A stretch of DNA of 60,371 nt, the filler included. It is 7 parts of 7 records of this genome, joined end to end, with 100 filler letters (N's around TTAATTAATTAA, not from the genome) between each part and the next. Parts side by side here need not be neighbours in the genome. Positions count along the whole stretch, not along the records: positions 29,963 to 37,799 come from SRR31156797_15951; 6 more parts are not named here. One strand, 5' to 3'. The position numbers and the translations under genes are program-made. The notes beneath the pieces are model-generated. The model searched no databases, had not been told where the DNA came from, and saw nothing but the letters and a program-made list of their open reading frames with translations. Positions 1,938 to 52,166 of the stretch are shown here, piece by piece (the stretch's first letter is position 1; each line of letters starts with the position of its first letter).

Positions 1938-3492
1938 TATTCCTTTTAATATACCACAAGGCTCCCTGGATGCCCCCCCTGAGAAGGGCGTGCCAGAAGT
2001 GTTTGGCGAAGAGGGTCCACTCCCCGTCTCCCTTCTCATCCTTCGTCTTCAGGGCGGGCAAGAGCTCCATACACTCTCCGACGGCCCGTTCCAGGCTCAA
2101 CAGGTTCCAGTCCTTTCGCTCCATCAGGGCAGCGGGAGGAAGGGGGACGGCGCCTTCGTTGTACCGCATACCGTAATCCGGTTGGAATCCTTCGAGGTTT
2201 TTCAGTTCGGCCCACCCGGAAAGGTCGTAAGCCGAAGGCGGGAACTCGCTGTCCAGGGGAGAGCTGAGGAAGGAGAGCGTTTCCTCCTCATCATCCTCCA
2301 GATCGATCCGGATGAGACTGACCGCGGCTGCGGAGGCCTCAAGGGCGGTCTCCCGGTCTCCGGCCACGGCGATGACGTTACCGCTTTTCATGACATTATT
2401 CCTGGGAAACTCAACCCTGTCGCCACAGTCTGCCAGCAGAAAAAGGTCCCTTACATGAGGAAGATCGTGGGCCTCCTCGAGGTTCCTGATCTCGCGTATG
2501 CGGCCGGGAATGGAGAGGAAGGCCCGCTCGGAAGAGCTATTCTTCTCCGGTTCATCCAGAGAGCCGGGGTCCATGCCCATGGCCAGGCGCATACCCTTCT
2601 CCACAAGGTTGACCCCTGAGGCATAGGGATAGGTCCAGCCGGACATATAGCCTCCGGAGAGACGGGCGGCGATCTCGCCGATCATGACGCCCCGGGAGCC
2701 AAGCTTCACATCCCCTTTTGCCGATCCCAGCGTGATGCCCAGGGCCCTGACCGCCTCCCTGAAGACCCTGAAGATCTCCGCCTCCGTTTCGGCGCCCACC
2801 GCCGAGGGAAGGGTATGCCCCATCTCGATAAAGCAGGGAGGATAGTAGATATGTCGGTCCGCGAATCCGGTGATATGGATCTCGCCGTCATAGACGATGG
2901 AATCGATGCTGAACTCGTCTCCGTCCATATACTCTTCGATGATGGCCCGGCCCGTACGGGAGTATTTTACGGCCTCCTGCACGGCCTCTTCCAGCTCGGA
3001 CCTGTCTGCCGCCGTGATGACGCCGCGCCCACCCATATTGTCCACAGGCTTGACCACCAGGGGATAGTTGAGACGGCCGGCCTCTTTGTCCAGATCCATC
3101 TCGGGAGAATATTCACAGAAATCGGGGCAGGGCACGCCGGCCTCCCTGAAACGGGAGCGCATGCGGTACTTGTCCGTACAGTCCAGGGCGGTCTGATAGG
3201 GGATTCCCGGGAGGTTCAGCTTCTCGGCGATCCAGGCCACGGACGCTGAGAAATCGGTTCCGCAGGTGAAAACACCCTTCAGCTCGATCCTGTCTTTCAG
3301 ATCCTCAGCCGCCTCGGCAAGCCCCACCCGGTCTTTCAGGTCAATATTAAGAAAGAGGTCGGCCCTGCTCCGGCAGGGGGCGTCCGGATTGCCGTCGGCT
3401 CCCACAGCGTACCAGCCGTTCTTCGCGGCGGCCTCGTAGGCCGGGAGCTGCATTATGCCGGCTCCGAGAATCAAAATACCCTTCTGTTTCAT
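1924..3492 (-). CDS. ATP-grasp domain ligase
   Basis: ILILGAGIMQ, DKYRMR, VVKPVDNMGGRGV, IIEEYMDGDEFSID, EIAARLSGG. Confidence 0.88.
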   Translation of the reverse strand: MKQKGILILGAGIMQLPAYEAAAKNGWYAVGADGNPDAPCRSRADLFLNIDLKDRVGLAEAAEDLKDRIELKGVFTCGTDFSASVAWIAEKLNLPGIPYQTALDCTDKYRMRSRFREAGVPCPDFCEYSPEMDLDKEAGRLNYPLVVKPVDNMGGRGVITAADRSELEEAVQEAVKYSRTGRAIIEEYMDGDEFSIDSIVYDGEIHITGFADRHIYYPPCFIEMGHTLPSAVGAETEAEIFRVFREAVRALGITLGSAKGDVKLGSRGVMIGEIAARLSGGYMSGWTYPYASGVNLVEKGMRLAMGMDPGSLDEPEKNSSSERAFLSIPGRIREIRNLEEAHDLPHVRDLFLLADCGDRVEFPRNNVMKSGNVIAVAGDRETALEASAAAVSLIRIDLEDDEEETLSFLSSPLDSEFPPSAYDLSGWAELKNLEGFQPDYGMRYNEGAVPLPPAALMERKDWNLLSLERAVGECMELLPALKTKDEKGDGEWTLFAKHFWHALLRGGIQGALWYIKRNNEDL

Positions 3493-7180: not shown

Positions 7181-7280
7181 NNNNNNNNNNNNNNNNNNNN
7201 NNNNNNNNNNNNNNNNNNNNNNNNTTAATTAATTAANNNNNNNNNNNNNNNNNNNNNNNNNNNNNNNNNNNNNNNNNNNN
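7181..7280. other. Artificial contig spacer (N run containing TTAATTAATTAA)
   Basis: The same 100-nt structure recurs at 16174-16273, 29863-29962, 37800-37899, 45408-45507 and 52066-52165; composition and gene content change at the junctions. Confidence 0.99.
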
Positions 7281-16173: not shown

Positions 16174-16273
16174 NNNNNNNNNNNNNNNNNNNNNNNNNNN
16201 NNNNNNNNNNNNNNNNNTTAATTAATTAANNNNNNNNNNNNNNNNNNNNNNNNNNNNNNNNNNNNNNNNNNNN

Positions 16274-29862: not shown

Positions 29863-29962
29863 NNNNNNNNNNNNNNNNNNNNNNNNNNNNNNNNNNNNNN
29901 NNNNNNTTAATTAATTAANNNNNNNNNNNNNNNNNNNNNNNNNNNNNNNNNNNNNNNNNNNN

Positions 29963-30284: not shown

Positions 30285-30321
30285 AAAAAAGGCCATGGAG
30301 CAGGAGCTTCTCCACGGCCTT
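30285..30321 (-). terminator. Second (downstream) terminator hairpin in the DAHP synthase leader
   Basis: Minus strand AGGCCGTGGAG-AAGCTCCTG-CTCCATGGCC followed by TTTTTT. Confidence 0.8.
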
Positions 30322-30326
30322 GAAAT

Positions 30327-30358
30327 AAAAAAGCCGTGGGAGGGTTGCCCACGGCTTT
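30327..30358 (-). terminator. First attenuator terminator hairpin
   Basis: Minus strand AAAGCCGTGGG-CAACCCT-CCCACGGC followed by TTTTTT. Confidence 0.85.
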
Positions 30359-30384
30359 GATTGCTTTGTTCTGTCAATAAGAGT

Positions 30385-30456
30385 TCAGCTCACCCCGGGC
30401 GGACGTGTGGTGTAAAAATAATACCAGAAATAAACGTTCGCAAAAAACCGGGACAT
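30385..30456 (-). CDS. Aromatic amino-acid attenuator leader peptide MSRFFANVYFWYYFYTTRPPGVS
   Basis: Manual translation: 23 aa with 4 Phe, 4 Tyr and 1 Trp, seven of them consecutive; RBS AGAGGA; precedes the terminators and DAHP synthase. Confidence 0.9.
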   Translation of the reverse strand: MSRFFANVYFWYYFYTTRPPGVS

Positions 30457-30498
30457 GTAAGTGATCCTCTCTATGGTTGTGTTTAGGTTCAGTATTTG

Positions 30499-30527
30499 TG
30501 ACTACAGGAGCCATTTGAATATGTCAA
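30499..30527 (-). promoter_or_regulatory. Sigma-70-type promoter for leader plus DAHP synthase
   Basis: TTGACA-17 nt-TAGTCA on the minus strand; the -10 match is weak. Confidence 0.55.
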
Positions 30528-30617
30528 GTATTTTATTTTTCCCATCTAACCCGACACCTGCCCCCCATGAGCCATCCACAGTGATTCCCGGGCCTTGCGC
30601 CTCCCGGAGCGGCTAAA

Positions 30618-30655
30618 AGAAGCCATTGAAATTACAGAGGCTTCTATGGTATATT
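30618..30655 (+). promoter_or_regulatory. Putative promoter with overlapping inverted repeat for the three-gene operon
   Basis: TTGAAA-18 nt-TATATT with an extended TG; inverted repeat AGAAGCC-N14-GGCTTCT spans the -35. Confidence 0.4.
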
Positions 30656-30740
30656 CCATATCTTTGTTTATGAAGCAGTGCGAACCGGCACACACTCCCC
30701 AAGGGGAGATACTGGTGAAGGGATAGAGGAGAAAAAGTGT

Positions 30741-32612
30741 ATGGGGCGTTTTGATGAGTTTGAGCTCACCATCAAAAAAATCCGTGAGTTTCCATTGACC
30801 TATGAGACAGTCATTCCAAAGGAGTGCAGTTTTTTCCAGGATGTGAGGCGTTATCAAAGCGTCACTTCCCACCTGGACATCAGGGTTATCAACGTTGACG
30901 GTCTCATAACCCTGGAACCGGACATGGAACAGGTTCCCATGTCAAAGCTGACCGCGGCCGAGAAAAAGGAGTTCATCGACTACCTGAAGATCAGGGTGAC
31001 CAGGGGAGACAACATCGGCTCTTCCTGGGCCTTTTTCCGGTCCCAGGAAAAGAAAAAAGGCATCATTGCCTATGGCGCCAACATCGTGCACAGGGATTCC
31101 GTAACGGGCCAGGACCGGGCAAGACGGCTCTTGACCATCCTCCAGGGCAGCAAGGTCCGGAGCCACGGCCTGAAACGGCTGGGGGCGGCCCTGGCCGTTA
31201 CCTGCCTTATGGCCGCGGCAACCCTGGGCATCTATAAATATGTATACGTGGAAAAACGGTTTCCCTTTAAAAGCCTGACATCCACCATGGATACGCCGGA
31301 AATGGCCTTCTATGAGATGATGTTTCCCCAGGTGTACCAATGGAAGACCGATGAACGGCCATTTATCAAAAAGATCGCCGACGACCTGCTGCGGCCCGAG
31401 TATGTCAGCGACCTCCTGTCAACCATGGACAAGGGGTTTTACGGAGGAGAGCACGGCAAGGACAACAACCAGGGGAACCGGCTGGCCCTGTTTGTCTATT
31501 TCAATTACAACACCGACGTGGCAAAGGCCATGGAGCGCTACGAGACAAAACTCCGGGGCACCGAGTTCATGCGCCTTGCCCGCATCTATTCGACGAAACA
31601 GTCCGGATATTCCAGCAACATCTTCTACTTCAAGGTGGGGGACCTCAATCTCAAGCGTGCCGAACTCTCCAACTTCCTGAAAAAGAACATGATCTCCTAC
31701 CGGGACTACACCAAACTCCGGGACGCCAATGAGTTTTCGGAACTGCTCCGGAAGGACGGCATCAGTTTCAAGATGAAAAGCTTTCTCGAGGATGTGTACA
31801 CCTTTACCCCCCTGCGGATAGACGAGCCCCTGGAGAACATCGACTGGTATCTGCTGACCCAGCAGGACAAGGTTGGCAACCTTGACTTTGCCGCCTTTTT
31901 CCAGCGGGGCAAGGCCACCCTGGTGCCAAGGCGCCTGGGGGATCACCTGCTCAACACCAAGGCCCCCAAGGATGTCGCCTGGTTTCCCATCGACGACGCC
32001 CAGGCCCGGCGGCTCAACCTGTCGGAAGACTCCCTGACCTATTTCACCAAGTCCATGGGCCAGGCCCTGAAACTGGACGTGGTCAAGGAGAAGATCGAAG
32101 GGCTGGGGCTGAAACCCGCGGACCACCTGCTGCCGGTCACCGTGCACAGGGAACTGCTCATGAGCGATTCCAAGGGCAAATACGGCATCCAGTGCTACGA
32201 TCCGGTCACAAGCCTCGTGCTCTCCAACCTGATCACCAAGTCCTCATTTGAGCGGGAAAACAACCTGTCGTTGAAGCGGGATCCCATCCAGGTGAACACC
32301 ACCCTGGTCCAGCTCTCCAAGGACGACAGCTTTTCCAACCAGTCCATCACCATCACCCCGGGCAAGACCGGCATTGCCAGACTGTTTGAGCCGGTGGACA
32401 GCTTTAAGGCCAGGTTCAGTGACGGACGGTCCGCCACCTTTGAAAAGGCCACGGTCAACCTCTTCAATCCCTTTTCCTTCATGGTGTTCAAAGACAGCAT
32501 CACCTTCAGCTTCAAGCACGACATCACGGACATGGAACTGGACCTCGGAGACACCCGGCTGAAAATCGTTAAATCCGAAGACGGAAACCACCAGATCCTA
32601 GAGATCAATTAA
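30741..32612 (+). CDS. Single-pass membrane protein of unknown function (SrfA-position component)
   Basis: RBS GAGGAG before the ATG at 30741; ~145-aa N-terminal domain, TM LGAALAVTCLMAAATLGIY, large C-terminal domain; strong coding codon bias. Confidence 0.75.
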   Translation: MGRFDEFELTIKKIREFPLTYETVIPKECSFFQDVRRYQSVTSHLDIRVINVDGLITLEPDMEQVPMSKLTAAEKKEFIDYLKIRVTRGDNIGSSWAFFRSQEKKKGIIAYGANIVHRDSVTGQDRARRLLTILQGSKVRSHGLKRLGAALAVTCLMAAATLGIYKYVYVEKRFPFKSLTSTMDTPEMAFYEMMFPQVYQWKTDERPFIKKIADDLLRPEYVSDLLSTMDKGFYGGEHGKDNNQGNRLALFVYFNYNTDVAKAMERYETKLRGTEFMRLARIYSTKQSGYSSNIFYFKVGDLNLKRAELSNFLKKNMISYRDYTKLRDANEFSELLRKDGISFKMKSFLEDVYTFTPLRIDEPLENIDWYLLTQQDKVGNLDFAAFFQRGKATLVPRRLGDHLLNTKAPKDVAWFPIDDAQARRLNLSEDSLTYFTKSMGQALKLDVVKEKIEGLGLKPADHLLPVTVHRELLMSDSKGKYGIQCYDPVTSLVLSNLITKSSFERENNLSLKRDPIQVNTTLVQLSKDDSFSNQSITITPGKTGIARLFEPVDSFKARFSDGRSATFEKATVNLFNPFSFMVFKDSITFSFKHDITDMELDLGDTRLKIVKSEDGNHQILEIN

Positions 32613-32644
32613 GGCACAAGGAGCCAAGGAGTATAAACCGTAAC

Positions 32645-34147
32645 ATGAATGCCAATCAAGATCGTCTGATGCAGCTGCGTCAGGATATTGAATCCATTGT
32701 TGATAAACTCGCCACCGTACCGGAAAGCCATGGAGACAAGGCCCGGAAGGCCATTGACCTGTGCCGGGACTGCCTCCACGGCATCCCCTCCGTGGATACC
32801 CCGGTGTACGTCCATATCACGGGCACGGATAAATCCTTTAAGACAAGCTACCTTTTGGATCTCTTCGATAATGATGAACTGAGACAGATCTTTTCCGTCA
32901 AGATGCGCACCACCTCGGAAAACACGGCCGTGCCCTGCCTGGTGGAACCCTCCGCCCGGGTGAAAAACGTCACCGTCAGCCAGGTGGCCATCTCTTCGGG
33001 GAGGGTGATCCGGGAAGACCTGAGCCAGAAGGAGTTCAACCGGCTCTATGACCTCTCCAACGGCGCCAACCCGGACGACTATCTTCTCCGGGTGGAAATT
33101 CCGGCCGACGCCACCCCCATGACCCTGCCGGTGATCGAGTATCCGGGCATCAAGGAGGGCGCCGATGCCATGGACCGGCAAAAGGAGCTTCACCGGCTCT
33201 TCCAGCAGAACATGCTGGACACCCTGGTGAAATATCCGGGGATCCTTGTGACCTGCTTCCAGCACAAGATCGCCATTCCCCCGGGCCATCCTTTGGATGC
33301 CATCCTGAAGAAATACGGGGATGTGCTCAAGACCAACCAGTCCCACCACAAGCTTCCTTTGGTGATCTCCATGCAGGGGGACAGCGCCATTGCAAGCTAT
33401 TGCGGCAACACCAACGTGGAGCAGGATATCCAGAGCGATTTCCAGAGCTACCGGAACTTTGAGACCATAATCCAGCTGGTCAACCCCTGCAATCTCAACT
33501 ATCCGGTCAACTTTGTTGCGCCCGGGCCCCACGTGGACACCTGGATCCGCAACCTCTCCAGATACCGGGACATTGAAGAAATCCGGGAGCAGGTGCTCCT
33601 GGACGGCGGCATCTCCTGGTCCCGGCGCCTGCTCAAGGAACTGTGCACCTCCTCCTATATCCGGGAAGCCCTGGACAACCTGTTCCTGCGGCCCTGGATC
33701 GTGGAGGCCACCGAGATCCATGGCCAGGCCATGGACTGCTACCAGGAGATCATCAACTATGATGAAAAGGCGGAGATCAAGGAACGGATGCGCCAGGCCA
33801 TTCTCAACGACTCCTACCGCTCCCTGCGGCAGTTCTTTGAGTCGGAACTGGCCTATTCCCAGGAGGGGATCATCCACAACCACGAGGAGTTCTGGGGCAC
33901 CATCTTCTCCTCTTACCTGGAGCAGTTTGTAAGGGATATCGAGCGGAGCAAGGCCATTGCCAAGGTCATGTGGAACGTCTTGTTTCAGCGGCTCGACCCG
34001 GATAGAAAGGGATTCCTCGGCGCCCAGGAAAAGGATCTTCCCTACATCATCATGAACATGGCCGAACTGTATGTCCCCAATGCACTGCTGCGGGGGGATT
34101 ATGTCCTTATGGAAAAGGATATGGAGGATACGAACCATGCTGTTTAA
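32645..34147 (+). CDS. Degenerate dynamin-like/SrfC-like P-loop GTPase
   Basis: VHITGTDKSFKTSYL (G1, with G to F), ENTAVPCLVE (G2-like), LPVIEYPG (G3, DxPG to EYPG), helical C-terminus. Confidence 0.6.
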   Translation: MNANQDRLMQLRQDIESIVDKLATVPESHGDKARKAIDLCRDCLHGIPSVDTPVYVHITGTDKSFKTSYLLDLFDNDELRQIFSVKMRTTSENTAVPCLVEPSARVKNVTVSQVAISSGRVIREDLSQKEFNRLYDLSNGANPDDYLLRVEIPADATPMTLPVIEYPGIKEGADAMDRQKELHRLFQQNMLDTLVKYPGILVTCFQHKIAIPPGHPLDAILKKYGDVLKTNQSHHKLPLVISMQGDSAIASYCGNTNVEQDIQSDFQSYRNFETIIQLVNPCNLNYPVNFVAPGPHVDTWIRNLSRYRDIEEIREQVLLDGGISWSRRLLKELCTSSYIREALDNLFLRPWIVEATEIHGQAMDCYQEIINYDEKAEIKERMRQAILNDSYRSLRQFFESELAYSQEGIIHNHEEFWGTIFSSYLEQFVRDIERSKAIAKVMWNVLFQRLDPDRKGFLGAQEKDLPYIIMNMAELYVPNALLRGDYVLMEKDMEDTNHAV

Positions 34148-35888
34148 TCTTTTTAAACGAAAAAAACCATCCATTGACGAGTTCAACCTGGAGCTTGAAG
34201 ATGATGACAAGCTCTACTATGAAACCATTGCCGGCCGCACCCCCAGGGACCCCAACAACCGTGAGGAGTACATCCTGTTCGTGGACTTCGGCTCCTACCG
34301 CACCTCGGTGCTCTGCTGGCCCTGCAGCTTTGGCAGGGACAAGATCACCGACTCCTGGCAGTACGTGGTCAACTGCAAAGACGGGGACCAGGGCGGCTTT
34401 CCCTCGGCATTCATCAACCCGCCCTCCGGGGATGACCGGGATTTCGCCTTTGTTGCCAACATGGGCGAAGAGGCCGTCAGTTCCAGCCAGATCGTAAAAA
34501 GCGCAAAATACGTGTTTGCCAGCAAGTTTGCCGCCTACAAGGGCAACGTGCCCCAGTTCAAGCTCTATATAAAAAAGGTGCTGGAGGAGAGCTTCAAATT
34601 CATCACCGAGCCCAAGGAGGGCAGGCCCTGGAACGGACCGGCCATCCCCACCATCACCGAAATCCGGGTCACGGTGCCCGATCTTTTCATCGAGAACCTG
34701 CGGAACGGCTACCGGGAAAACATCTTTTCCGTGTGCATGGACCTTGCCAACCACAACAAGTGGGGCCAGCTGTTTCCCGATAATCTCAGGCACCTGCGAA
34801 AAACCTTTGTCAACATCTCAGCCGATGAAAACGGCGCCTGTGAGCTCTATTTTCTCAACCTGCTCAAACTGATGCCCTTCTGGGAGCTGTCCAGCCACAA
34901 GGACAGGAGCCCGGACCTCAAGGAGGTGGACTTCCTCTTTTCCCAGAACCGGCTCTTGAACCAGGAGAAGAAAAAGCTGAACTTTGTGGTGTGCCACATC
35001 GATATCGGGGGCCTTACCACCGACGCCAGCATCCTTCTGATCAACACTTACCAGGACCCGGCCATTGGCATCACCACGGCCCTGAAACGAAAAGAGTCGT
35101 TCTCCGAGAAAAAGGCGGGCGAGTATTTTGCCCAGCGGTATGCCGAGACAAAACTGCCCGAGGAGGAAGGCCGGTGGTGGGAATCGGAACGGTTCATGGA
35201 AAAGGAGTTTTCCCGGTTCCTGGAGCTGCTGTTCGGCAAGCAGGCAGCGCTTCTCACGGAATGGCGAAAGGAAAAGGAGCTGAACGGCATCTATTTTCTC
35301 ATCTCGGGCAGGCCCACCAAGGCCGAGCTTGTGAGAAAAACCATCCAGCGCCATATCCTCAAGGAGTTCAACAAGGAGGAGCTGATCCTGCTGCCGGAAC
35401 ACTGCCTGTTCATGGCCGACTATTACCATGTGGGCAAGAACCAGGAAGGGGAACGCTATGCCAAGAAGATCGACCATTTTGAAAAGCTCATCACCCTGCT
35501 GGGCAATGTCTACACCCTGTACGACGGGTATGAGATCGACTTTGAGGATCATAAATACTATATCTCCCTGGATGTGGACACACGGACCACCAGCCAGATG
35601 GAGGTGATGCCGGGCAAGCTGTACAACATGGAAGAGTTTGAGAACTACCAGAAAGCGGCCCAGCGAAACAATGTCAACCACCTGGCCTTTACGCGGATTT
35701 CGGCGGGGGAAAACGCCACCCGGTTTCTCACGGTGAAAAAGATCGCCCGGCAGACCGCCTATCCCAGCATCAAGGTGGCGGAAACCAATGAATGCGACGA
35801 CCAGGCCTGGATCATGCCCTCCCTGGTGATCACCAACCTGGAGCAGAACGAGCAGTCCTTTGACCTTGCCTGGGACGCCCACGAGTAA
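34137..35888 (+). CDS. Hsp70/actin-fold ATPase, SrfB-like
   Basis: LFVDFGSYRTSV (phosphate 1), ISADENGA (connect 1), HIDIGGLTTDASI (phosphate 2), LISGRPTK (adenosine); RBS GGAGGA; overlaps the upstream stop. Confidence 0.75.
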   Translation: MLFNLFKRKKPSIDEFNLELEDDDKLYYETIAGRTPRDPNNREEYILFVDFGSYRTSVLCWPCSFGRDKITDSWQYVVNCKDGDQGGFPSAFINPPSGDDRDFAFVANMGEEAVSSSQIVKSAKYVFASKFAAYKGNVPQFKLYIKKVLEESFKFITEPKEGRPWNGPAIPTITEIRVTVPDLFIENLRNGYRENIFSVCMDLANHNKWGQLFPDNLRHLRKTFVNISADENGACELYFLNLLKLMPFWELSSHKDRSPDLKEVDFLFSQNRLLNQEKKKLNFVVCHIDIGGLTTDASILLINTYQDPAIGITTALKRKESFSEKKAGEYFAQRYAETKLPEEEGRWWESERFMEKEFSRFLELLFGKQAALLTEWRKEKELNGIYFLISGRPTKAELVRKTIQRHILKEFNKEELILLPEHCLFMADYYHVGKNQEGERYAKKIDHFEKLITLLGNVYTLYDGYEIDFEDHKYYISLDVDTRTTSQMEVMPGKLYNMEEFENYQKAAQRNNVNHLAFTRISAGENATRFLTVKKIARQTAYPSIKVAETNECDDQAWIMPSLVITNLEQNEQSFDLAWDAHE

Positions 35889-35913: not shown

Positions 35914-35938
35914 GGCCTGGGGAGCCCCTCCCCAGGCC
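35914..35938. terminator. Hairpin at the end of the operon
   Basis: Perfect 11-bp stem GGCCTGGGGAG-CCC-CTCCCCAGGCC between convergent genes; no strong U tract. Confidence 0.55.
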
Positions 35939-36026
35939 TGTTCCCTTCCGGAAAAGACCATGGGCTCGCACGTACGCCCGGATAAAGCGGCCATGATGGC
36001 GGCGAATTTGACGGGCTTGATACCCA

Positions 36027-37517
36027 TCATACGTAGGCCTGAATAAAGCCGCCCAAATACTTTCCTGTCCTGACGGCGGAATCCAGGATCTCGAGAAACG
36101 CCCCATCATCGATCTCAACAAGGGTTTCCGTCATCCGGATGAGCCCTTCCAGGTTATGGCCCGCGTCCGAGGCCACCGTGAGGAAGCTGTGCCGGGCCAA
36201 AGCGATCCGGTCATCCCCGGGATCCGCTTCCTGTTTTTCCCTCAGTTTCTCTCCCAGTACATTGGTGATGTTCATGAAATCGCTGAGCAGCCCGGGCTCG
36301 GCCGTGGCGCTTGCCCCAAGGAAATGTTCCCGGTCCTTTCCCTTCAGCTCCCGGGTCAACCCGATCAGGTTCGAAAAAGTACCGGCAGGAGCGCTGGTGG
36401 CGGCGATTCCCGCAGTCCGGATAAAGTTTTTCAGGGGTTCCCCCCCAAGATCACGCCCCCCCCCCAGGAACGCTTTCTGTTCTCCCCGGGTGGCGGCCCT
36501 GAGCACCTCCAGAAGATCCCCGGTGGCTTCTGCCGCGCCGGCGGCCATTTTAAAAAAACCGGCTCTCTCGTCCCCTTCCATGGCTTCAACCCGGGACCGG
36601 AGTGCCGCCGGATCGGCGGCCGTGCGGGAGGCGATCCCAAGAAGCGTTTTCCTGTCTTCCCCGGTCAGCTCCCGGGTCCTGTCAATGCGCGCGCAGATGG
36701 CCTTTTCCCCGGCCCCGTCCATCATGGAAATAAAATCGGCCAGGGCCGCTCCGGAATCCTGGGCATTGATATAGGCCAGGATTTTGCTGCCGGTCTTCCG
36801 GGAGACATCCTGGATCGTTGAAATCAGGATCATCACATTCTGGGCGCTCCGGGCCGCAGCGGACAGAAAGCCGGACAAGTCCTTTCCCCCGGAGTCTTCG
36901 GAGTCTTCCAGGCGCCTGTCCACCTCCTTGATCAAGATTGAGAGATCTTCACCGGCCATGGCCGCGGCCGACAGATAGTTGCCCAGCTCCTTGCCCAGCA
37001 GTTGTGAGGCGGTATCAATCATGCGGTCCAGATCCCGGGGAGCGTTGTGAATGGCGGTCAGGAAATCCCGCACCCCCTCTTCCGGCAGCTTTTCCGCCAA
37101 AGAAAGAACCCCCTTGCGCTGCCGGCCGGAAAGACGGCGGGTGGTATCGATAAATTTCCCAACACGGTCTCCGGTCTTCACCACGGCCAGAAGAAAGTCC
37201 GACCGCTCCTTTTCGCTGAGCTGTGACACCACATCGTTCAATGTCGTTTCCAACACCCCGAGGGTGACCGCAAGTTCCCTGAGTTCCCCCCGGTCCCTCT
37301 CTTTGACCGCCCGGTCATAGGCAGACGCCACCTGGCTCCGGGAATCCTCATCCGAACCGTCCTTTCCTGAAGAAGCCGCTTCCACGGCCTGGGAAGGGGA
37401 TGCCCCCTGGGTAACGGATGAACTCGCCTGGTTCCTGGTGCCGCAGTTCTCAGCTGAAGTGGTGTGCAATGGATTGGAGGAGTAAGAATTTACTGCTGCC
37501 AGCTTAATTGACCCCAT
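36027..37517 (-). CDS. Hypothetical alpha-helical repeat protein with Ser/Ala-rich disordered N-terminus
   Basis: RBS GGAG before MGSIKL at 37517; recurring ~29-aa units of the form LxGxx(R/L)xxFLxAA....Lxx(L/F)I. Confidence 0.65.
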   Translation of the reverse strand: MGSIKLAAVNSYSSNPLHTTSAENCGTRNQASSSVTQGASPSQAVEAASSGKDGSDEDSRSQVASAYDRAVKERDRGELRELAVTLGVLETTLNDVVSQLSEKERSDFLLAVVKTGDRVGKFIDTTRRLSGRQRKGVLSLAEKLPEEGVRDFLTAIHNAPRDLDRMIDTASQLLGKELGNYLSAAAMAGEDLSILIKEVDRRLEDSEDSGGKDLSGFLSAAARSAQNVMILISTIQDVSRKTGSKILAYINAQDSGAALADFISMMDGAGEKAICARIDRTRELTGEDRKTLLGIASRTAADPAALRSRVEAMEGDERAGFFKMAAGAAEATGDLLEVLRAATRGEQKAFLGGGRDLGGEPLKNFIRTAGIAATSAPAGTFSNLIGLTRELKGKDREHFLGASATAEPGLLSDFMNITNVLGEKLREKQEADPGDDRIALARHSFLTVASDAGHNLEGLIRMTETLVEIDDGAFLEILDSAVRTGKYLGGFIQAYV

Positions 37518-37573
37518 GCTGTTGTTCTCCGCTTTTGATGGTGCAGTTAAGTATATATGCCACAACGAGATAA

Positions 37574-37799: not shown

Positions 37800-37899
37800 N
37801 NNNNNNNNNNNNNNNNNNNNNNNNNNNNNNNNNNNNNNNNNNNTTAATTAATTAANNNNNNNNNNNNNNNNNNNNNNNNNNNNNNNNNNNNNNNNNNNN

Positions 37900-45407: not shown

Positions 45408-45508
45408 NNNNNNNNNNNNNNNNNNNNNNNNNNNNNNNNNNNNNNNNNNNNTTAATTAATTAANNNNNNNNNNNNNNNNNNNNNNNNNNNNNNNNNNNNN
45501 NNNNNNNC

Positions 45509-51779: not shown

Positions 51780-52166
51780 ATTTTGTTTGTAAGCGTCTAA
51801 GGCTAATCCTCCACTCATGGATTCAGGATAATTTCTTTGTTGGAATACCTAAATAGGGGATTCTCTTATTCAGGCCTAATGCCAGGCGCTATTTAATTGT
51901 CATGTTAAGGAGCAAGGGTAGGGCTAAGAGTATCAACGAAAACTAAGATTTTGTAACGGGGTTTTAGAAAGGCTATATTATCAATATATTAAAGCTATGG
52001 CTGTCTGCAGATCTTGAATGGCGCCCAACAAGCCATCCCAAAAAAGAGATATGGCTCAAGGTCAANNNNNNNNNNNNNNNNNNNNNNNNNNNNNNNNNNN
52101 NNNNNNNNNTTAATTAATTAANNNNNNNNNNNNNNNNNNNNNNNNNNNNNNNNNNNNNNNNNNNNG

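Follow-up and report, generated by a model that had tools for sequence, protein, structure and literature searches.

SrfABC-type systems are, to our knowledge, widespread and without a known mechanism. In the parts of PMC6950479 used here, SrfA, SrfB and SrfC were found to co-precipitate, and SrfABC of Xenorhabdus was reported as a three-part cytotoxin. The sections used of a 2026 preprint (10.64898/2026.09.18.752743) give SrfA an N-domain, a transmembrane (TM) helix and periplasmic domains, dock SrfB and SrfC on SrfA in AlphaFold3 (AF3) models and report SUMF1-family genes beside srfABC. Genes for bacterial dynamin-like proteins (DLPs) are usually paired with a second DLP gene, as stated in an excerpt of PMC6104087. 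Here we examined a three-gene locus (g1, g2 and g3) that lies in a stretch of 60,371 bases, hereafter the window. The trio was a real, conserved and co-occurring unit with the structure of one operon. Purifying selection on its genes was strong, and a part of the Desulfobacteraceae has inherited them vertically. Its products are predicted to be a membrane anchor, a divergent GTPase-like protein and an ASKHA (actin/Hsp70-fold) ATPase.

To follow the trio across genomes, we carried out a locus scan with one genome per species, which gave 46 loci. All came from Desulfobacter, Desulfobacula, Desulfobacterium, Desulfospira, Desulfocicer, Desulfamplus or other Desulfobacteraceae, one label aside, and included isolates of cultured sulfate reducers (Desulfobacter, Desulfobacula, Desulfocicer and Desulfamplus). 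In 41 of the 46 loci g2 directly preceded g3, and the remaining five had at most 361 bases ahead of g3. Every locus that carried g1 had the order g1-g2-g3 (33/33). Six loci had other genes upstream of g2 in the place of g1, and g1 was present elsewhere in four of the five such genomes searched. Among 161 genomes of the family, g3 was found in 57, g2 in the same 57 and as a 26-residue fragment match in one more, and g1 in 56, with all three genes together in 55. Two small metagenome-assembled genomes (MAGs) lacked g1, and one MAG had g1 while neither g2 nor g3 was found in it. The preliminary description of this DNA had asked for a conserved trio and had taken a failure of the homologues to co-occur as grounds to drop it; both the neighbourhood search and the genome counts showed the three genes together. 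Each genome carried one trio locus, and the apparent double matches were genes split over contigs or two aligned stretches.

The genes flanking the trio varied by lineage and were ordinary metabolic or housekeeping genes, including aroG/aroB, purine deaminases, RNase G and hydrogenase maturation genes. The g3 tree tracked genus labels and had no long branches. Mean identity to the window proteins over 32 loci was 61% for g1, 65% for g2 and 80% for g3, and g3 was 73-98% identical across genera. The ratio of nonsynonymous to synonymous substitution rates (dN/dS) against three relatives was 0.15-0.23 for g1, 0.20-0.21 for g2 and 0.07-0.08 for g3, so that all nine gene-pair comparisons fell between 0.07 and 0.23. 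The trio loci and the g3 tree place the source near the Desulfobacteraceae and support a relative of this family as the source organism, in line with the Desulfobacterota-like host first suggested. The single label outside the family belonged to a bin named Cohaesibacter (Pseudomonadota; L034). Its g3 was nearly identical to, and nested among, those of Desulfobacterium-labelled bins, and the label probably stems from a mistake in binning or naming.

Beyond the close relatives, a metagenome scan returned 23 close relatives and a single distant locus, L090. This locus carried a distant g3 (35% identity) with a g2-like C-terminus just upstream, and was too short to reveal what precedes g2. Three distant g2 clusters were found on contigs equal in size to those of three distant g3 clusters. 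Beside the distant pair in L090 we also noted a 390-aa gene (2279-3451, minus strand) with a weak FGE-sulfatase (SUMF1-like) match of 24.3 bits against a cut-off of 23.3.

Within the window, the three genes were tightly linked on the plus strand (Table 1), with 32 nucleotides (nt) between g1 and g2 and an overlap of 11 nt between g2 and g3; their sizes and positions were as originally described. The ATG of g1 and its AGGAGA site were kept in all seven aligned upstream regions, and g3 homologues had the same N-terminus. The earlier proposal that the genes have their own promoter and a closing hairpin was likewise borne out in part by conservation and in part by folding. The candidate promoter block was kept in 7/7 aligned upstream regions where the adjoining sequence had diverged, despite a promoter scan that was overall at chance level (2 sites against 2.4 expected). 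A hairpin was found after g3, though without a T run and without a listing in the terminator scan; the folding energy of the surrounding 75 nt was -26.7 kcal/mol (z -2.66). A second hairpin in the 5' leader was present in the window, L001 and L044, nearly so in L003, and absent or changed in L002, L005 and L038. It matched no Rfam family.

Transcript data came as assembled contigs from four metatranscriptome runs of two studies, from related strains 90-99% alike. The contigs covered g1, g2 and g3, and single contigs spanned the g1/g2 junction (32320-32733 and 32599-32790) and the g2/g3 junction (33839-34181). The stretches 30300-30687 and 35926-36100 had no RNA contig in the four runs, which fits the promoter and the hairpin, yet a coverage gap is no evidence. 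The RNA contigs fit co-transcription of the trio and are no proof of a single transcript.

We searched each protein against family collections. No Pfam, NCBIfam or PADLOC match was obtained for g1, g2 or g3 at E<=1, and 17 proteins from each of the g3 and g2 families, scanned singly, yielded no consistent Pfam family either. Among PDB sequences, the HMMER profiles of all three proteins had no matches or matches at chance level only; the SrfC and SrfB control profiles were equally blank, hence this search was uninformative. The word-based search found 39 relatives of g3, 72 of g2 and 97 of g1. Run on 1.84 billion representatives, the g3 profile yielded 11 proteins at E<=0.001, and six of these scored below 1e-30. 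The source names of all relatives read 'hypothetical' or 'uncharacterized' throughout, as had been expected. None of the three families, whose proteins span 500-620 aa, carries any annotation. A full-length match to a characterised system, which would have undone the claim of novelty, was found in none of Pfam, NCBIfam and PADLOC, and full-text literature searches found no description of a trio of ASKHA, dynamin-like and membrane-anchor proteins, nor of an actin-fold ATPase paired with a dynamin-like protein.

The g3 protein carried the clearest fold signature. Across 17 sequences the motifs D50-x-G52...T56, D230-E231, D289-IGGLTTD296 and G391-RPT394 were invariant. The AlphaFold2 (AF2) model of g3, with a predicted local distance difference test (pLDDT) score of 81.3 and a predicted template modelling (pTM) score of 0.84, showed two consecutive beta-beta-beta-alpha-beta-alpha-beta-alpha halves. 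The first half consisted of strands 42-51, 55-62 and 77-89, helix 139-157, strand 170-180, helix 186-204, strand 225-230 and helix 231-248. The second half consisted of strands 280-290, 295-307 and 311-321, helices 327-379, strand 384-390 and helix 397-411, and continued beyond; a beta-rich C-terminal domain followed at about 465-583. D50-G52-T56 fell past the first strand and D230-E231 past the fifth, and in the second half D289-D296 fell between the first two strands and G391-RPT394 past the fourth. These are the places at which nucleotide is bound in ASKHA proteins, and every nucleotide-binding motif of g3 was intact. Because the AF2 model and the invariant motifs both show it, we assign the modelled fold of g3 to the ASKHA class, with ATPase activity predicted. 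The actin/Hsp70 motifs first read in this gene were thus invariant and sat in duplicated ASKHA halves.

To compare g3 with SrfB, we searched 301 genomes of the phylum with PF07520 and found true srfABC in 11 of them. Five srfABC loci were fetched, confirmed by Pfam and NCBIfam, and used to build profiles. With hhalign, g3 matched SrfB at a probability of 60.7% (E 8.2e-5) over 149 columns, with a SrfB profile of five sequences only. The alignment extended from the TVP strand via the DE pair to DIGGxTTD, and a looser alignment paired SGRPT with TGRPS. Controls built from the trio genomes gave DnaK at E 0.011, an HscA-like protein at 0.012, all Hsp70-type proteins at 0.0045, an Hsp70-like 607-aa protein at 0.0012, an MreB-like protein at 0.0053 and a 427-aa ASKHA protein at 0.6, and the control alignments spanned 23-72 columns. 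By these profile comparisons, SrfB is the best match of g3 among the families tested. The Pfam model of SrfB, PF07520, did not match g3 at E<=1, nor any of the 17 members at E<=5.

We noted two sets of genes beside these comparisons. Three trio genomes carried adjacent Hsp70-like open reading frames (ORFs) of about 604-611 and 959-982 aa (G001:C8:112561-114952, G002:C55:2401-4950 and G003:C17:145750-148276), which were distinct from the DnaK and HscA genes and had no relation to the trio. The canonical srfABC loci (L053-L057) had a conserved gene of about 365-380 aa without a family after srfC in four of the five, and a trypsin-like peptidase gene upstream of srfA in L054.

The g2 protein also had invariant motifs across 17 sequences, namely G60-TDKSFKT67, T94 and (E/D)165-YPG168, together with H207-K208. 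Its P-loop is a Walker A motif with Phe replacing the second glycine (GTDKSFKT). The alpha/beta domain had no [NT]KxD (G4) motif in any member; the sole instance was at residue 458 of P0105, outside the G domain. In the AF2 model (pLDDT 86.2, pTM 0.71), strand 55-60 led into the G60TDKSFKT loop and helix 63-74, a beta hairpin (98-103/110-114) followed T94, YPG closed strand 163-165 ahead of helix 177-196, and the HK pair lay behind strand 199-205. Two N-terminal helices formed a helical hairpin, and the C-terminal half (297-498) was all helical. DLPs have this layout, with helices at the N-terminus, then an alpha/beta domain, then a C-terminal half that is helical. A language-model search with the g2 homologue P0099 (56% identical) placed dynamin-family clusters nearest (score 0.95, 172-179 shared features), and all ten of the best family-bearing matches belonged to one clan. 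The spacing from G1 to G3 was 105 residues in g2 and 95 in a 473-aa Dynamin_N protein from a trio genome. Neither g2 nor any of 17 members of its family matched Dynamin_N (PF00350), while the same model found dynamin-family genes in all five trio genomes. The G1, G2 and G3 motifs reported at the outset therefore stand, invariant and placed in the model as in a GTPase. The further suggestion of a degenerate dynamin-like GTPase is plausible from the AF2 secondary structure and the language-model neighbours, with no sequence match, and g2 probably has a dynamin-like fold as modelled. A likeness between the N-terminal helix of g2 and that of the dynamin-family protein L100 was seen by eye only and was borne out by no test.

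Since Phe replaces the second P-loop glycine and the guanine-specificity motif is missing, g2 would be an atypical or non-hydrolysing regulatory or scaffold subunit. It is likely an atypical or inactive NTPase.

The g1 protein contained a single hydrophobic segment at residues 147-165 (Kyte-Doolittle 1.87), matching the one TM helix first described, and no such segment occurred in g2 or g3. This helix separated a conserved N-terminal domain (about 1-145) from a conserved C-terminal domain of about 450 aa, and conservation was strong on either side of the segment and variable within it. Four basic residues lay N-terminal to the segment and the C-terminal side was neutral. These features suggest that g1 is probably a single-pass membrane protein with a cytoplasmic N-domain and a periplasmic C-domain. 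All 97 relatives of g1 were at least 46% identical in the word search. The language-model neighbour search with P0141 gave no usable match, and its stored model was poor (pLDDT 0.33). No known sensor domain was found in g1 in Pfam, NCBIfam, PDB-sequence or language-model searches. The g1 family is an orphan family.

The resemblance of the trio to SrfABC lies in its plan. Both are three-gene operons whose products are a bitopic membrane protein, a P-loop protein and a protein of the ASKHA fold. The DIGGxTTD and [ST]GRP[ST] motifs are common to g3 and SrfB, and the predicted g1 layout of cytoplasmic head, one TM helix and large outer part recalls that of SrfA (NF040486) as given in the sections used of 10.64898/2026.09.18.752743. 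However, the order in the trio is anchor, GTPase-like, ASKHA, whereas the canonical loci that we fetched ran A-B-C. At 583 aa, g3 is about half the length of the fetched SrfB proteins (1031-1098 aa), and g2 has 500 aa against about 880 aa in SrfC (PF10139, Virul_Fac). SrfC has GPSQ[SA]GKS, DFPG and TK[FM]D, whereas g2 has GTDKSFKT, EYPG and no [NT]KxD in its alpha/beta domain. A by-eye resemblance of g2 to SrfC (SxK[ST]-YL, [DE][FY]PG and DGG[IV]) was backed by no test. Canonical srfABC was not found in the three trio-bearing genomes searched.

Other known proteins resemble single members of the trio. The g2 protein shares its secondary structure, the G1-G2-G3 order and a helical C-terminal half with bacterial DLPs (PF00350; BDLP, DynA and LeoA), but its G3 is mostly ExPG, its P-loop is GTDKSFKT and its partner is an ASKHA ATPase rather than a second DLP. 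The g3 protein shares duplicated RNase-H-like halves and the phosphate-1, phosphate-2 and adenosine motifs with Hsp70/DnaK, MreB and FtsA, and had short hhalign matches to Hsp70 in the phosphate-2 and adenosine regions. In contrast to Hsp70 and MreB, g3 had no PF00012 or PF06723 match, and its hhalign matches reached E 0.001-0.012 over 25-72 columns only. It has no substrate-binding domain and carries an extra beta-rich C-terminal domain. PilM-PilN and MreB-RodZ each combine an actin-fold cytoplasmic protein with a single-pass membrane protein that has a periplasmic domain, and are encoded among pilus or cell-wall genes. The trio does not lie amid such genes and resembles these pairs in architecture.

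We give an even chance to the reading that the trio is one operon for a lineage-specific, membrane-anchored module of two NTPases, analogous to SrfABC and vertically inherited. Such a module would most likely act for the envelope of its own cell and not in defence or as a toxin. Made together from overlapping frames, g2 and g3 would assemble in the cytoplasm into a complex, and this complex would dock on the part of g1 that faces the cytoplasm, its head. ATP turnover by g3 could then drive a conformational change or assembly at the membrane, which might pass through g1 to its periplasmic domain or remodel the membrane itself. The role of g2 in this scheme would probably be regulatory or scaffolding.

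Several points weigh against this reading. The mutual binding of g1, g2 and g3 is a proposal by parallel with SrfABC, and the link of g3 to SrfB was 61% probable, covered 149 of 583 residues and was invisible to HMMER. Comparison of g2 with SrfC gave an hhalign probability of 1.4%, an N-terminal cut gave E 0.79, the global alignment failed and there was no PF10139 match. Comparison of g1 with SrfA gave 0.2% and no NF040486 match (the comparison set scored 194-330 bits). Against Dynamin_N proteins from trio-carrying genomes, g2 reached an hhalign probability of 1.2%, and BLASTP against the 473-aa dynamin-family protein gave E 1.2 and aligned only the stretch from G3 to HK. The deviant P-loop of g2 may mean that no nucleotide is bound. 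The fold names of g2 and g3 rest on secondary-structure order, motifs, one hhalign match and language-model neighbours; for the topology of g1, the basis is only a hydropathy scale together with counts of charged residues. The RNA libraries may contain DNA, and contigs cannot prove one transcript. Next to the most distant g2-g3 pairs, the search turned up no homologue of g1, and the anchor is perhaps not universal.

The preliminary description had called the trio a mini, reordered srfABC. The g3 part of that claim held, with SrfB as its best match, but no homology was found between g2 and SrfC or between g1 and SrfA, and because of this the phrase is an analogy on one subunit. By comparison of plan and sequence, we regard the trio as SrfABC-like in architecture and as three new families, not as a member of the Srf families. 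A broader possibility, which we consider doubtful, is that the trio and SrfABC are two branches of one unrecognised class in which an actin-fold ATPase and a dynamin-superfamily protein act on a single-pass membrane adaptor. If so, the vertical inheritance, single copy and strong constraint of the Desulfobacteraceae version would show that the class originally served to remodel the envelope of its own cell or to signal there, and not as a toxin; the trio would then be a compact, tractable model for SrfABC. If the SrfB link is real, the compact trio could help to explain SrfABC-type systems and would present a new type of partner for bacterial DLPs. If it is not, the trio still offers a clean case of an envelope module confined to one lineage.

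Two kinds of variant locus were observed. DpnII-like restriction enzyme and N6_N4 DNA methylase genes lay between an intact g2 and an intact g3 in L013 (8021-9951) and L017 (8022-9950). In Desulfamplus, a hybrid histidine kinase lay immediately upstream of g2 in the place of g1 (L020 5732-8521, L021 3788-8521 and L018 69-1490). This kinase has a PAS-HisKA-HATPase-REC-Hpt arrangement, with CHASE and Cache domains in L021 and a 4-nt overlap with the start of g2 in L020.

We weighed the envelope module against other accounts of the same genes. Trios of unknown NTPases are common in defence islands, and the trio was at first thought to be a possible anti-phage or conflict machine. On that account it would be a compact SrfABC-type toxin or anti-phage module in which an NTP-gated assembly kills the infected or target cell. 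The SrfB match of g3, the cytotoxicity reported for Xenorhabdus SrfABC in the part used of PMC6950479 and the restriction-modification pair between g2 and g3 in L013 and L017 are what one would cite for it. However, that pair is an insertion in two loci only and not a conserved neighbour. PADLOC-DB gave 0 families at E<=1 for g1, g2 and g3, the neighbours were housekeeping and not defence genes, and searches of Pfam, NCBIfam and PADLOC showed no domain of a toxin, nuclease, protease or pore. Each genome had a single locus, and the g3 tree follows genus labels. The identity and dN/dS of g3, which show strong purifying selection, are unlike those of fast-evolving conflict genes. These observations weigh against the conflict proposal, and we consider it improbable. 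Signalling across the membrane is hardly any better placed in our estimate and is also improbable. Here the periplasmic domain of g1 would sense a cue, and g2 and g3 would act as nucleotide-dependent switches that relay it to a downstream pathway. The REC/Hpt hybrid histidine kinase in the place of g1 (L018, L020 and L021) speaks for such a role, as do the presence of g1 elsewhere in two of these Desulfamplus genomes and the resemblance of g2 to a GTPase with lost catalytic features, like switch or pseudo-GTPases. However, the kinase was a neighbour in just three closely related loci of 46, no response regulator or output domain was conserved with the trio, and g1 had no recognised sensor domain.

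PilM docks on PilN, MreB on RodZ and FtsA on its partners, and the trio could be a cytoskeletal or trans-envelope scaffold unrelated to SrfABC, with an actin-fold g3 on the tail of g1 and g2 as an accessory in a clade-specific envelope structure. The ASKHA fold and DIGGxTTD motif of g3 are common to FtsA- and MreB-type proteins, g1 is bitopic with conserved domains on either side of the membrane, and inheritance was vertical, single-copy and under strong constraint; the SrfB similarity is also weak enough to be a signal of shared superfamily. But the SrfB profile matched g3 better than the MreB-like one did (E 8e-5 against 0.005), and g3 has the [ST]GRP[ST] adenosine motif of SrfB rather than the GGG type. 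No pilus, divisome or elongasome genes were conserved near the trio, and there was no sign of g3 polymerisation, so we think a scaffold of this kind unlikely. That the genes form no functional unit at all, as chance neighbours or mis-called ORFs, might be argued from the absence of family matches for g1, g2 and g3 and from the long opposite-strand ORFs in this GC-rich DNA. This account was refuted by protein conservation across dozens of genomes at dN/dS values far below 1, by the confident AF2 models of g2 and g3, and by a near-perfect co-occurrence of 55 genomes with all three genes against 3 with a partial set (the 26-residue g2 fragment in a fourth set aside), which leaves it next to no probability.

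Table 1. Positions of the trio, its candidate signals and the surrounding features along the window.
Feature	Position	Strand	Remarks
g1, 623 aa	30741..32612	+	orphan, probable single-pass membrane protein
g2, 500 aa	32645..34147	+	soluble, GTPase-like motif order
g3, 583 aa	34137..35888	+	soluble, predicted ASKHA (actin/Hsp70-fold) ATPase
sigma-70-type promoter-like site TTGAAA-18 nt-TG-n-TATATT	30626..30655	+	10/12 consensus positions; predicted
5'-leader hairpin CTCCCC-AA-GGGGAG	30695..30708	+	read from sequence
GC-rich hairpin, 11-bp stem, 26 nt past g3 stop	35914..35938	+	possible terminator without U tract
DAHP synthase gene, 5' part, truncated by contig end	29963..30352	-	Pfam DAHP_synth_1; flank, outside module
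512-aa ORF without Pfam family	36027..37565	-	between g3 and tRNA; flank, outside module
tRNA-Leu(GAG), first 27 nt, truncated by contig end	37773..37799	+	identical to tRNA-Leu gene start in L001
linker	7181-7280		N44-TTAATTAATTAA-N44
linker	16174-16273		N44-TTAATTAATTAA-N44
linker	29863-29962		N44-TTAATTAATTAA-N44
linker	37800-37899		N44-TTAATTAATTAA-N44
linker	45408-45507		N44-TTAATTAATTAA-N44
linker	52066-52165		N44-TTAATTAATTAA-N44

The window was not one continuous DNA. It consisted of seven contigs spliced via linkers (Table 1), and the genuine context of the trio is the 7.8-kb contig at 29963-37799 alone. The neighbouring contigs, with lipopolysaccharide (LPS) genes and Bacteroidota-type genes, were rejected as context since they are separate contigs. 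The G+C content per contig ranged from about 32% up to 60%, and the low-GC contigs carried Bacteroidota-type genes (Por_Secre_tail, a type IX secretion system (T9SS) sorting domain; GH31; GSIII). Because of these swings in G+C and these genes, the source of the window looks like a mixed bin.

On the trio contig, the flanks had been described as a DAHP synthase gene and a tRNA region. The DAHP synthase gene was there, and its full-length orthologue in the closest relative, L001, is AroFGH. The tRNA was present as its 27-nt start only, and a 512-aa ORF between it and g3 had been missed. ARAGORN found no complete tRNA in the window, and Rfam gave one sub-threshold small RNA match only (E 0.32) on the trio contig. 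Homologues of the 512-aa ORF were confined to L001, L002 and L044, which are the closest loci; by eye, the ORF contains repeats of about 35-40 residues each, of the form 'x-F-L-x...-L-I'.

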